Under the pieces are notes generated by a model that saw only the letters and a program-made list of their open reading frames with translations, did no database searches and had not been told where the DNA came from. Source: Escherichia coli (GTDB lineage: Bacteria; Pseudomonadota; Gammaproteobacteria; Enterobacterales; Enterobacteriaceae). Taken from it: DNA of 64,000 nt. Where the stretch lies: assembly GCF_048403405.1 (NCBI RefSeq), contig NZ_CP183129.1. One strand, written 5' to 3'. The stretch's first letter is position 1; each line of letters opens with the position of its first letter. Below are positions 8,504 through 13,869 of the stretch, in pieces. A program made the position numbers and the translations under genes.

Positions 8504-9000
8504 TTCGAGTAGAAATTCCCATTGATGCGCCGGGTATTGATGCCCTGCTGCGTCGTTCATTCGAAAGTGATGCGGAAGCGAAGCTGGTTCACGATCTGCG
8601 TGAAGATGGCTTTCTGACGTTGGGGCTGGTGGCGACAGATGACGAAGGTCAGGTCATTGGCTATGTGGCATTTAGTCCGGTTGATGTGCAGGGCGAAGAC
8701 CTGCAATGGGTCGGCATGGCACCGCTGGCGGTAGATGAAAAATACCGTGGACAGGGGCTGGCACGCCAACTGGTCTATGAAGGACTCGATTCGCTCAATG
8801 AGTTCGGCTATGCCGCAGTGGTGACGCTGGGCGATCCGGCGCTGTACAGTCGTTTCGGCTTTGAGCTGGCGGCGCATCACGATCTGCGTTGCCGCTGGCC
8901 GGGCACTGAAAGCGCCTTCCAGGTACATCGTTTAGCGGATGACGCGCTGAACGGCGTAACCGGTCTGGTTGAGTATCACGAGCACTTCAATCGCTTTTAA
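8497..9000 (+). CDS. yhbS: GNAT-family N-acetyltransferase YhbS
   Basis: ORF track 167 aa; start overlaps the ubiT stop by 7 nt; recognised as YhbS. Confidence 0.9.
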
Positions 9001-9289
9001 TCTTTGGGGTTTGCAGGCTGCTCAACAGTTCTGCAAACCCTGCACCTTCCGCTACCAGACGTTCTTTTTGCCGTTTGGTCAGTTGCTTAACGCGATATTC
9101 TGCCCGTAACGCCAGCGAACGATCGCCCACTGGCGCGGAAAACGCCAGCGTTAGTTCTCCTTTCCCGCGCAGTGCTTTCGCCCCTTTGCCGCTCTGGTGC
9201 TCCTTATAGCGGCGTTCGACATCCGTGGTGATCCCGGTATAAAGCTTATTATCGGCGGTACGGATCAAGTAAAGAAACCAGGGTGTCAT
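8987..9289 (-). CDS. yhbQ: GIY-YIG domain protein YhbQ (UPF0213)
   Basis: ORF track 100 aa; GIY-YIG signature [15 protein letters not shown]...; 3' end overlaps yhbS convergently. Confidence 0.9.
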
Positions 9290-9339
9290 CGTCTGCGTCG
9301 CATGTTAAGGTCAGGCCCACAGTATAAAAGAGAACAGCA

Positions 9340-9783
9340 ATGGAAACACTCACCGCCATCAGCCGTTGGCTGGCAAAACAACATGTTGTCACCTGGTGTG
9401 TGCAGCAGGAAGGGGAACTCTGGTGCGCTAATGCCTTTTATCTTTTTGATGCGCAGAAAGTCGCCTTCTACATTTTGACGGAAGAAAAAACGCGCCACGC
9501 GCAGATGAGTGGGCCGCAGGCGGCAGTTGCCGGAACTGTAAACGGTCAGCCGAAAACGGTAGCGTTAATTCGCGGCGTGCAATTTAAAGGCGAGATCCGC
9601 AGACTGGAAGGTGAGGAAAGCGACCTCGCACGCCAGGCGTACAATCGTCGCTTTCCGGTTGCCCGAATGCTGTCGGCCCCGGTGTGGGAAATCCGGCTCG
9701 ATGAAATCAAATTCACCGACAACACGCTGGGCTTTGGTAAAAAAATGATCTGGCTACGTAACTCAGGCACCGAGCAGGCGTAA
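9340..9783 (+). CDS. yhbP: UPF0306 protein YhbP
   Basis: ORF track 147 aa; recognised as YhbP. Confidence 0.88.
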
Positions 9784-10281
9784 TGCCTCGCGGTTAAACG
9801 CTGGCAGATCGTCCGGTGTGCGGCTGGTAACCAGCTGATCTTTATCGACGACGACTTCCTGATCGTAAAATTCCGCGCCCGCGTTTTTAACATCAATAAT
9901 GATCGGTTTAACGGCAGTCAGTTTGCGCCCCCGAATCACATCGGCGCTGATCAGCAGCTGCGGACCGTGACAGATGGCGAAAACAGGTTTGCCGCTATTC
10001 ACAAAATCACGGGTGAAAGTGACAAAACGGTTGTCGCCACGCAGATAATCCGGTGAATGGCCGCCCGGTAGCAGCAGGGCATCAAACTCTGCGGGCGTCA
10101 CTTCATCGATGGATTTATCGATGGTCACACTGGCTTCTCCTTTTTTGCCTTTCACCGTTTTACCCGCTTGCTTTTCAATGGTAATCACTTCGTGTCCGGC
10201 TTTACGGAACTCGTCTGCGGGTGAAGTAAATTCTGAATCCTCAAATTCATCACTGATTAAAACGGCAATTTTCTTACTCAT
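9763..10281 (-). CDS. yhbO: DJ-1/PfpI-family stress protein YhbO
   Basis: ORF track 9763..10323; internal ATG (MSKKIAVL..., 172 aa) preceded by GGAGG; AICHGP nucleophile motif. Confidence 0.9.
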
Positions 10282-10408
10282 GCTTCCTCCGCGTTGTTGC
10301 ATTGGATGAGGCGAATTTCTCACGATCGGGGATAATTACCTCGTAGACTATTAAGCCTGGTGCATGAGCCGGGGAGCGCAAGGCAGACAATTCTGTAAAG
10401 GAGCGAAG

Positions 10409-11044
10409 ATGAGTCAGGTACTGATTACAGGCGCAACGGGGCTGGTGGGCGGTCACCTGCTGCGGATGTTGATTAATGAACCGAAAGTTAACGCCATTGC
10501 TGCGCCGACGCGACGTCCGTTGGGCGATATGCCCGGGGTGTTTAATCCCCATGATCCGCAACTGACTGACGCGCTGGCGCAGGTCACCGATCCCATCGAC
10601 ATTGTGTTTTGTTGTCTCGGCACCACGCGGCGAGAAGCGGGGAGTAAAGAGGCGTTTATTCATGCCGATTACACGCTGGTAGTGGACACCGCCTTAACCG
10701 GGCGGCGGCTTGGTGCGCAGCATATGCTGGTAGTCAGTGCTATGGGTGCTAATGCCCACTCGCCATTTTTCTATAACCGCGTCAAAGGGGAGATGGAAGA
10801 AGCGTTAATTGCCCAAAACTGGCCGAAATTGACCATTGCTCGCCCGTCGATGTTGCTGGGCGATCGTAGCAAACAGCGGATGAATGAAACGCTTTTTGCG
10901 CCGCTGTTCCGTTTGTTACCGGGTAACTGGAAATCCATTGATGCGAGAGACGTGGCGCGGGTCATGCTGGCAGAGGCGATGCGGCCTGAGCATGAAGGTG
11001 TGACGATTTTAAGCTCTTCAGAATTACGCAAAAGAGCTGAATAA
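10409..11044 (+). CDS. yraR: NAD(P)-binding Rossmann-fold protein YraR
   Basis: ORF track 10364..11044; ATG at 10409 gives [15 protein letters not shown]... (211 aa). Confidence 0.88.
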
Positions 11045-11116
11045 TTATTCCCAAGAAATGATAGTGAGCGTAATATTCACGCGCTCAATTATCATAACTT
11101 ATTCCTGGGGAATGCT

Positions 11117-12157: not shown

Positions 12158-12192
12158 GATGTTGGATGCTCCTGAATACAGCACTGGACGGT

Positions 12193-12216
12193 CCCCTCTC
12201 CCCTTTGGGGAGAGGG
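12193..12216. terminator. stem-loop CCCCTCTCCCC/GGGGAGAGGG between the convergent genes yraQ and dolP
   Basis: Perfect GC-rich inverted repeat seen in the sequence; no clear T-run, so terminator function is inferred. Confidence 0.35.
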
Positions 12217-12278
12217 TTAGGGTGAGGGGAACAGGTCGGCTAAGATGTGAATATTTACTTCAACGACCGATCAATGGC

Positions 12279-12854
12279 TTATTTAATAAACGTAAACGCC
12301 GTAGTTACCCGCTTCACGCCGCTCACCCGGCTGGCAATATCTGCCGCCGCTTTCGCTTCACGTTCAGTCACCAGCCCCATCAGGAACACTTCACCGTTTT
12401 CGGTGGTCACTTTCACGTTGGACGATTTCACCAGGTCGCTGGTTAAGAGCTGCGAACGTACTTTGGTGGTGATCCATGTATCGTTAGACGCTTCGCCCAG
12501 ACCAATCGGCTGGCCCTGACGAATCTCGTTATACACTTCGTTGGCACCGTCTACGCCCATAGCAATCTGTTTGGCGCGAGCCGAAAGTTCAGCGTTTGGT
12601 GACTGCCCAACCAGCAGCACTTTGCCCTGATACGCCGTGACATTAATACGGGTTTCTTTCTTAATCTGTTCGTCTTTCGACAATGCGCTGTTTACGCGCA
12701 CTTCCAGGGTACCATCGTCCACCTGGGTGCCGACACTGCGTGGGTCAGTTGCGGCTTTGGTACCTACAGCAGCGGTACCCACTACGGCAGCGGCAACACA
12801 ACCTTGCAACAGCAGCGCGGAAAGAAGGACTGCGATTGGCGATAATGCCTTCAT
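12279..12854 (-). CDS. dolP: outer-membrane BON-domain lipoprotein DolP (YraP)
   Basis: ORF track 191 aa; lipobox LLQGC; recognised as YraP/DolP. Confidence 0.92.
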   Translation of the reverse strand: MKALSPIAVLLSALLLQGCVAAAVVGTAAVGTKAATDPRSVGTQVDDGTLEVRVNSALSKDEQIKKETRINVTAYQGKVLLVGQSPNAELSARAKQIAMGVDGANEVYNEIRQGQPIGLGEASNDTWITTKVRSQLLTSDLVKSSNVKVTTENGEVFLMGLVTEREAKAAADIASRVSGVKRVTTAFTFIK

Positions 12855-12863
12855 GTATTCTCC

Positions 12864-13454
12864 TTAAACATCCTGGTGAGGGAAAAGCGTGTTATCGATC
12901 AGATCGCACAGGCAATTTACCGTCAGCATATGCATCTCCTGAATGCGAGCACTACGATGCGAAGGAATGCGGATCTCCACATCCTGTGGCCCTAACAAAC
13001 CTGCAAGTTCACCGCCGTCATAGCCGGTTAATGCCACAATGGTCATATCACGCGTAACGGCAGCTTCTACCGCTTTTACAATATCGCGGCTGTTGCCACG
13101 GGTGGAAATGGCTAACAATACATCTCCCGCATGACCCAGCGCCCGCACCTGTTTTGCATACACTTCATCATGTAAGCGATCGTTGGCAATCGCCGTTAAG
13201 ACAACATTATCAGTATTTAGTGCAATGGCAGGTAAGCTGGGCCGCTCCGTTTCGAAACGGTTGATCATGCTGGCAGCAAAATGCTGTGCATTGGCAGCGG
13301 AAGTTCCATTACCACAACAGAGGATTTTGTTGCCATTGAGCAGAGACTGAACCAGCGTCATGGCTGCACGGGAGATGGCATCCGGAAGCGCCTCTGCCGC
13401 CGCAATTTGAGTTTGAATGCTTTCAGTGAAGCAAGCTTTAATTCTTTCTTGCAC
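12864..13454 (-). CDS. diaA: DnaA initiator-associating protein DiaA (SIS domain)
   Basis: ORF track 196 aa; recognised as DiaA. Confidence 0.92.
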
Positions 13455-13473
13455 GCTAATCCTTAAACCTTAA

Positions 13474-13869
13474 TTATGAGTGGTCATTAAAGGCATCCTT
13501 AATCCACTCAACCTCATTCCCGGTGAAGGCTACCACATCGAACCGGCAATCCACAGTATCAAAACTCCCATTATGACGCGCGAGCCACAAGCGGGCAGTC
13601 TGTAATAATTTGTGTTGTTTGCTGCGGGTCACACTGGCTGCCGCGCCGCCATAAAGCGCAGAGCGGCGGTAACGCACCTCGACAAAAACGGTGATCCGGC
13701 CTTCACGCATTATCAGATCGATCTCGCCGCCACGCTCGTTCACGTTAGCGGCGATAAACCGCAGTCCTTTGCCTTCCAGCCAGCGACGCGCTTGTGCTTC
13801 CCACGCATCGCCGGTCTGTTTGGTGGTTAACTGGCGGGGACTACCTGACCTTGTTGGTACTGTAGCCAT
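13474..13869 (-). CDS. yraN: UPF0102 protein YraN
   Basis: ORF track 131 aa; recognised as YraN. Confidence 0.88.

Follow-up and report, generated by a model that had tools for sequence, protein, structure and literature searches.

At three places in a 64,000-nucleotide (nt) stretch of Escherichia coli DNA (assembly GCF_048403405.1, contig NZ_CP183129.1; this whole stretch is referred to as the window), neighbouring genes of the yhb/yra region share their ends: the convergent pairs yhbS/yhbQ and yhbP/yhbO overlap by 14 and 21 nt, and the tandem pair lpoA/yraN by 43 nt. These overlaps are real, evolutionarily fixed and of the terminal-tail type, and are not annotation errors. In each pair a variable tail that lies outside any domain (that of YhbQ, YhbP or YraN) is laid over a constrained terminus of the partner (YhbS, YhbO or LpoA respectively). 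Beside the first of these junctions, within codons of yhbQ, lies a conserved hairpin. The genes and features concerned, with the basis of each assignment in brackets, are as follows.

7979-8503, plus strand: ubiT.
8497-8503, plus strand: tandem overlap of ubiT and yhbS, 7 nt (ATGCTAA), not listed in the initial annotation (bases read).
8497-9000, plus strand: yhbS, a GNAT acetyltransferase gene and the second gene of ubiT-yhbS (open reading frame (ORF) list, annotation, Pfam).
8987-9000, both strands: convergent overlap of yhbS and yhbQ, 14 nt, TCAATCGCTTTTAA (junction bases read directly).
8987-9289, minus strand: yhbQ, a GIY-YIG nuclease gene (ORF list, annotation, Pfam).
9006-9041, both strands: hairpin starting 6 nt after the yhbS stop codon, in yhbQ codons (folding, covariation).
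9340-9783, plus strand: yhbP (annotation, locus comparison).
9763-9783, both strands: convergent overlap of yhbP and yhbO, 21 nt, TCAGGCACCGAGCAGGCGTAA, in which the codons are exactly antisense to one another (bases read).
9763-10281, minus strand: yhbO, a DJ-1/PfpI deglycase gene (annotation, Pfam).
9821-9847, plus strand: weak terminator-like hairpin and T-rich tail, 38 nt after the yhbP stop codon, in YhbO codons QLVTSR.
About 10153, plus strand: published region of Rho-dependent termination, antisense to yhbO and about 370 nt downstream of the end of yhbP (mapped via the MG1655 annotation).
13474-13869, minus strand: yraN, UPF0102 family (annotation, Pfam).
13827-13869, minus strand: tandem overlap of lpoA and yraN, 43 nt, ATGGCT...CAGTTAA, dual-coding in the +1 phase (bases read).
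13827-15854, minus strand: lpoA, encoding the PBP1A activator (annotation, Pfam).
13875-13880, minus strand: Shine-Dalgarno sequence of yraN, AGGAAG, 5 nt upstream of the ATG at 13869 and within lpoA codons N-R-K.

The overlap lengths of 14, 21 and 43 nt given in the initial annotation are exact, being borne out by the ORF list, the annotations and the bases themselves, and the gene coordinates agree among the ORF list, the RefSeq annotation of a 100%-identical strain and the annotation of K-12 MG1655. The 6-kb stretch around the overlaps is present in 5,425 of 5,426 complete E. coli genomes and is 100% identical in several chromosomes. Five of the six proteins of the overlapping genes have Pfam matches; the sixth, YhbP, has none, yet it retains 65-99% identity among related loci, and tblastn finds all six genes conserved in as many as 80 loci. 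These loci were gathered from the Enterobacteriaceae by one YhbQ scan of the genome collection (Escherichia, Citrobacter, Salmonella, Enterobacter, Klebsiella, Kosakonia, Buttiauxella and other genera), and in each of them every gene was placed by tblastn and then extended to its stop codon. The frames are thus supported by homology, their boundaries cannot be re-set and the overlaps are conserved in related genomes, as is expected of terminal overlaps. Outlying loci are accounted for by frameshifted assemblies (L049), by a truncated or degenerate yhbO (L003, L046) or by a lost stop codon (L055), and there are no genuine counter-examples among them.

At the yhbS/yhbQ junction 69 of 80 loci share the 14-nt overlap, and in the remaining loci its length takes values of 4, 17, 25, -2, -7 and -113 nt. 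YhbS is the constrained partner, with 167 residues in 71 of 77 loci. The GIY-YIG domain of YhbQ occupies residues 4-76 and is followed by a C-terminal tail of variable length outside the domain, so that the protein measures 95-104 residues in nearly all loci, with its last six residues 44% identical to those of E. coli. The same division of roles is seen at the yhbP/yhbO junction. YhbO has 172 residues in 49 of 49 loci, its last six residues are 95% identical and its DJ-1/PfpI profile extends to residue 168 of 172; YhbP carries the variable tail, with a length of 140-148 residues and only 32% identity over the last six. Wherever yhbO is intact the overlap has one of two lengths, 21 nt in 34 loci and 15 nt in 14; together these make up 48 of the 55 loci in which yhbO was matched, the exceptions being accounted for. 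Of 77 loci, 28 lack yhbO beside yhbP, among them those of E. albertii, E. whittamii, many Citrobacter, Trabulsiella and Buttiauxella; where the gene is absent YhbP is shorter, ending directly after ...WLRxx. The loci lacking yhbO are L006, L007, L011, L012, L015, L017, L018, L020-L025, L027, L033, L036, L045, L058, L062-L064, L066, L068, L074, L075, L078 and L079; in L046 the gene is reduced to a 46-residue remnant.

In the tandem pair the overlap of lpoA and yraN is exactly 43 nt in 69 of 69 scorable loci, even though LpoA identity falls to about 65%. The LppC profile of LpoA extends to residue 669 of 675, and near the end of the protein the sequence ...NRKLSWLxYQQGQxVPAS, its C-terminus, is near-invariant; the UPF0102 domain of YraN begins at residue 24, and its first 14 codons, which are those in the overlap, are variable. 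Given that the third codon positions of lpoA are the first positions of yraN within the overlap, it is YraN that takes up the variation. The choice of start codon for yraN, which the initial annotation had marked for checking, leaves no latitude: the ATG at 13869 is the sole canonical start in the interval from an in-frame TAA, five codons upstream, to a GTG at codon 43, and the latter falls within the conserved domain. The start lies at the same position in the 69 loci, as ATG or, in three of them, as GTG, and the AGGAAG before it is nearly invariant, with a single substitution. The three GTG-start loci (L029, L044 and L065; Franconibacter, Siccibacter) carry KLMWL rather than KLSWL in LpoA and keep the overlap of 43 nt.

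It might be supposed that the overlaps are annotation artefacts that corrected starts or stops would remove, as the initial annotation had allowed in suggesting that some ends were slightly off. Long overlaps are often misannotated (in one survey, as relayed by a citing paper, all unidirectional overlaps above 60 nt were misannotations; Palleja 2008), and the first 23 residues of YraN stand outside its Pfam domain. However, this is hardly credible for three reasons: first, each convergent end is the stop codon of a frame with homology support and cannot be moved, and Pfam profiles reach within 4-6 residues of the ends of YhbO and LpoA; second, yraN has no alternative canonical start, and its start, ribosome-binding site and overlap length are conserved in 69 loci; and third, the 43 nt of lpoA/yraN lie below the class of more than 60 nt. 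The suggestion of misplaced ends is accordingly refuted.

The pattern of these junctions is that of textbook overlaps arising by boundary drift of a weakly constrained tail, and the overlaps themselves are already known from the K-12 annotation, from a published overlap table (in which lpoA-yraN stands at -43 and ubiT-yhbS at -7) and from the MG1655 excludome. They are also ordinary in number. Published counts for E. coli give 586 co-oriented and 75 convergent overlapping pairs, and 2,987 unidirectional pairs among about 4,131 adjacent pairs; by our reckoning these figures leave some 570 convergent pairs, about 1 in 8 of them overlapping, and at that rate two adjacent overlapping junctions should occur several times per genome. 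The first 50 kb of the window hold nine annotated overlapping pairs, and 2 of about 7 convergent pairs there overlap. The convergent overlaps are therefore a mild local cluster, statistically unremarkable for E. coli. The 43-nt tandem overlap sits in the long tail of the length distribution: among the first 68 or so unidirectional pairs of the published list, only hokC/mokC and the IS1 pair insA/insB exceed 25 nt. Other tandem overlaps in the window are those of yrbN/deaD (8 nt, 1396-1403), agaD/agaC (11 nt, 18381-18391), nagA/agaF (4 nt, 23374-23377), agaE/agaW (11 nt, 24694-24704) and yhaV/prlF (1 nt, 28837), which indicates that short overlaps are common here.

Given how common such junctions are, all three overlaps could be selectively neutral, left behind as the genome became compact and stop codons drifted, and of no consequence for regulation, with the hairpin beside yhbS/yhbQ merely incidental to the codons of YhbQ. 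The subordinate genes have tails that are free to vary in both length and sequence, the extent of the yhbS/yhbQ overlap shifts in some genera and yhbO is dispensable in more than a third of the loci scored, all of which would accord with neutrality; the fixing of lpoA/yraN at a single length in spite of the divergence of LpoA argues in the other direction. This account is possible, if somewhat unlikely.

The hairpin at 9006-9041 is built on a perfect 10-bp (base pair) inverted repeat (9007-9016 and 9031-9040) with a G+C-rich stem of 10-12 bp, and has a folding energy of -22.5 kcal/mol (z-score of -4.25 against shuffled sequences). The YhbQ residues that it encodes fall outside the GIY-YIG domain. 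Only eight perfect inverted repeats of at least 10 bp with short loops occur in the window, and most of the others are gene-end terminators with A/T flanks; this is the only one in a coding region without them. Four perfect inverted repeats of 10-12 bp with A-run and T-run flanks (29273-29298, 35967-35990, 54772-54799 and 59203-59226), such as AAAAACCCGC/GCGGGTTTTT directly behind rnpB, have the appearance of classic bidirectional intrinsic terminators. A covariance model of the yhbQ hairpin, built from Escherichia, Citrobacter and Salmonella sequences, found matches only at this junction in 1.2 Mb of related loci, which rules it out as a dispersed repeat, and a scan of 7800-16000 against Rfam returned no relevant family at E <= 1.

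Comparison among genera lends support to the stem. In 24 sequences from Escherichia, Citrobacter and Salmonella the outer 8-bp stem is kept and two pairs covary, and the third codon positions of yhbQ are conserved to 0.95 within the stem against 0.69 outside it (one-sided Mann-Whitney p = 0.0015). In the alignment of 42 sequences obtained with the covariance model, 93.8% of cells pair, compared with 18-66% when the partners are slid. Three pairs show double changes: 11 sequences have C-G in place of G-C, 3 have C-G in place of U-A, for which U-G intermediates occur, and 2 have A-U in place of G-C. There are 16 compensatory cells where shuffles give 4.8 +/- 1.5, and the observed covariation score is reached by 0 of 500 shuffles. 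In one of the compensations a non-synonymous change (Gly to Ala) is matched by a synonymous one (Thr ACC to ACG), which in our reading of the sequences would be hard to attribute to protein constraint alone. Differently spelled hairpins occupy the equivalent position in Franconibacter, Trabulsiella, Buttiauxella and Dryocola. Over the 50 nt after each stop codon, the median percentile of local folding energy for all loci is 3.7 for yhbS, 13.5 for yhbP, 31.5 for yhbQ and 69.6 for yhbO, and no stable structure follows the yhbO or yhbQ stop codon in any genus. The compensatory changes and the excess conservation at synonymous sites argue, against the neutral account, for selection on the hairpin itself. 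It is suggested, tentatively and as a proposal that is on balance unlikely, that the hairpin is a selected element forming 3' ends for ubiT-yhbS and yhbQ, whether as a pause or collision site or as a barrier to exonucleases, and that the sequence of the YhbQ tail would be shaped mainly by RNA structure rather than by what the protein does. As far as could be checked the conserved hairpin on the YhbQ tail is apparently undescribed, and it makes a minor addition of a known kind.

A second hairpin, about 45-70 nt after the yhbS stop codon, is seen in several Citrobacter, Salmonella, Trabulsiella and Enterobacter loci (L012, L019, L033 and others), where a run rich in U comes after it, as in CGCCUUCUACAAGGCG-UUCUUUCUG, within the YhbQ codons KRQKER; E. 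coli keeps the U-rich run (9062-9070) and has not kept the second hairpin.

Published data bear on transcription at both convergent junctions. The yhbS/yhbQ and yhbP/yhbO pairs are both among the 165 convergent excludons of MG1655 (PMC12288877, Table 1), a class defined there by RNA sequencing (RNA-seq) coverage that overlaps in 50% or more of 58 transcriptomes. A Rho termination region at MG1655 3299102 on the minus strand, corresponding to about 10153 on the plus strand of the window, is antisense to yhbO (Adams et al. 2021, PMC7815308, supplementary file 2); reads there fall from 77 to 20 in untreated cells and go from 115 to 143 with bicyclomycin (PMC7815308). The initial annotation had proposed transcriptional interference or read-through at these pairs, and transcription into the partner gene is supported by these published data. 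It had also held that there is no room for terminators between the convergent genes. This stands in so far as there is no intergenic space, and is overstated in so far as 3'-end signals can lie within the coding sequence of the partner, where the conserved hairpin is placed, within yhbQ and 6 nt beyond the stop codon of yhbS.

Two further candidate signals were considered at the yhbP/yhbO junction and rejected. A consensus terminator scan found a single site near the junctions, the hairpin at 9821-9837, which has a stem of 7 bp and is followed from 9838 only by AUCUUUAUCG, short of a U-tract; its conservation is explained by the codons of YhbO, and Rho termination 330 nt further on implies read-through, so that this hairpin and its tail (9821-9847) are probably incidental. 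On the minus strand a U7 tract (9739-9745) lies 18 nt after the yhbO stop codon and is preceded by no hairpin, which removes it as a canonical terminator; it is the antisense of YhbP codons G-K-K-M and is conserved in the genera with the 21-nt overlap.

Given that both pairs stand in the published excludome, that overlap of coding sequences guarantees complementary transcripts and that the overlaps are conserved, it is conceivable that the convergent pairs are functional excludons, repressing one another through polymerase collision, through RNase III cleavage of the double-stranded 3' overlap, or both. Nevertheless, this is quite unlikely: the listing shows overlapping coverage only, and no reciprocal expression or RNase III dependence was found for these pairs in the literature examined. 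Furthermore, expression appears low, and the complementary stretch may be short if yhbS transcripts end at the hairpin.

Taken together, the joint best explanation, to which we would give a probability of about 0.7, is that these are ordinary terminal-tail overlaps, that the 3' ends of the convergent transcripts form inside the partner genes and that yraN is initiated de novo. In the convergent pairs, a polymerase must run on into the partner, so that the 3' end forms within the partner's coding sequence and the 3' regions of the two mRNAs are complementary, in keeping with the published overlap of transcripts. For ubiT-yhbS this end may be set or stabilised by the conserved hairpin 6 nt past the stop codon, the likeliest route being termination downstream, by Rho or by collision with polymerases on yhbQ, after which exonucleases would trim the RNA as far as the hairpin. 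For yhbP, antisense read-through into yhbO would continue for about 370 nt before Rho stops it, where the assignment of that transcript to yhbP is our inference. In the tandem pair, lpoA and yraN are most likely co-transcribed and yraN most likely initiates de novo at its own AGGAAG-N5-ATG, which ribosomes on lpoA would keep unfolded. Classical reinitiation at yraN is improbable because the lpoA stop codon lies 40 nt downstream of the yraN ATG, outside the spacing for termination-reinitiation (-1, -4, -8 up to about +6), and coupling weakens sharply as the distance grows (PMC10666635). A published table gives, for 262 gene pairs of the LpoA and YraN COGs, a median distance of -4 with the lower quartile at -26; the overlapping habit of this pair is thus widespread, and the 43-nt form is its enterobacterial version.

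Several observations weigh against this explanation. The sequence from 9042 is UGCACCUUCC on the plus strand and CAAAGAUUAA on the minus strand, so the hairpin at 9006-9041 has no U-tract on either strand and is not a canonical intrinsic terminator, falling outside the definition of one. The stem erodes in Kosakonia and some other genera, and counts of G·U against A·C favour neither strand strongly as the one under selection. The alignment (A3) was fitted to the structure of the model and its sequences are related, so that the compensations represent few independent events. The curated Term-seq tables of PMC7815308 hold no 3' end within MG1655 3299000-3300399, the hairpin included, which would also suit the neutral account; the low read counts suggest low expression, and this absence is weak negative evidence. 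The Rho-terminated antisense RNA in yhbO may start at an internal promoter rather than with yhbP. Finally, the literature examined contains no report of translational coupling between lpoA and yraN or of interference between the convergent pairs.

The lack of a U-tract, and strand counts that favour neither strand strongly, would accord with a hairpin that is a bidirectional terminator of the collision type, positioning the head-on meeting of polymerases and defining the 3' ends of both the ubiT-yhbS and the yhbQ transcripts. Its position at a convergent junction, its folding on both strands without a U-tract, as in the element that has been described, and its conservation with covariation would all suit that role. 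This is improbable, however, given that on the yhbQ strand the stop codon of yhbQ comes 17 nt after the end of the hairpin: termination there would remove the stop codon and yield a non-stop mRNA, and is for this reason unlikely. The curated tables of PMC7815308, moreover, give no 3' ends there on either strand.

The start codons of the divergent genes yhbQ and yhbP are 50 nt apart (spacer 9290-9339), which means that their promoters must overlap mutually or sit within neighbouring coding sequences, and throughout the block from ubiT to rsmI gene orientation alternates and spacers are nearly nil. A published Rho termination region at MG1655 3295554 (minus strand) corresponds to about 13709 on the plus strand of the window, antisense to yraN, and the sole nearby consensus promoter-like site on the plus strand is at 13183-13210, within antisense diaA, which suggests a Rho-limited antisense RNA spanning diaA-yraN. 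Elsewhere, a palindromic dispersed repeat rich in GC, CCCCTCTCCCCTTTGGGGAGAGGGTTAGGGTGAGGGG, of which an E. coli genome has about 6 copies, lies in the convergent spacer between yraQ and dolP (12158-12278, with a core at about 12190-12232). At least 80% of the exact 121-nt spacer is found in only 428 of 5,426 genomes, and the MG1655 spacer is 8 nt shorter. The repeat would seem to resemble the 'boxC' repeat family. A yhaC-family gene (36186-37374, minus strand) is annotated as a pseudogene, frameshifted and with an internal stop, in the identical strain.

The practical weight of these results is small. They confirm the reference annotation of the block as correct and the overlaps as stable genomic features. 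They show compact convergent genes placing their 3'-end signals within the coding sequence of a neighbour, and the yhbQ hairpin may offer a small model for the constraint of a protein tail by RNA structure and for 3'-end formation where there is no spacer. If the hairpin is indeed selected for forming 3' ends, it would illustrate clearly, in nature, how a signal of the terminator type can be overprinted on coding sequence for want of intergenic space between convergent genes. The 43-nt overlap of lpoA and yraN could likewise serve as a test case for translational coupling by long overlaps.

Comparison with known systems places the three junctions among the short terminal overlaps of coding sequences (Fukuda 2003; Johnson & Chisholm 2004; Huvet & Stumpf 2014), with which they share common ends, a moved boundary and conservation between species, and among which convergent overlaps arise by movement of a stop codon. 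There is no essential difference from that class, save that 43 nt exceeds the usual tandem lengths of 1, 4 and 8 nt and that two convergent overlaps are adjacent. The tandem pair has the layout of termination-reinitiation coupling (Huber et al. 2019, 2023), with the ribosome-binding site of the downstream gene inside the upstream gene, and the COG pair of LpoA and YraN appears in the table of conserved overlapping pairs of Huber et al., where it is marked 'CMPLX not'. It differs from the coupled pairs in that the lpoA stop codon is 40 nt downstream of the yraN start rather than within a few nucleotides of it, and the two proteins form no known complex. Convergent excludons (the Listeria paradigm; the ExcludonFinder 2025 list) have the same 3'-overlapping convergent transcripts, and both yhb pairs are listed. 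The functional core of an excludon, however, is mutually exclusive expression and RNase III processing, whereas the yhb pairs are assigned to the class by the published transcript overlap.

For the hairpin, two likenesses stand out. Ju, Li and Liu are said to have described in 2019, by SEnd-seq, bidirectional and collision-driven terminators between convergent genes. Such terminators (see also Wang et al. 2022, preprint) likewise have a palindrome encoding a hairpin without a U-tract at a convergent junction; the element described here differs in lying within the coding sequence of one of the genes, upstream of the stop codon of that gene, and no 3' end in the curated Term-seq tables falls on it. 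The other likeness is to the 3' ends of Rho-dependent transcripts, which reportedly, in work of Dar and Sorek from 2018, are trimmed back to a protective stem-loop. The same pattern of a stable hairpin lacking a U-tract shortly after a stop codon, with Rho termination nearby in the block, is present at this locus, and yhbS transcripts may follow it.

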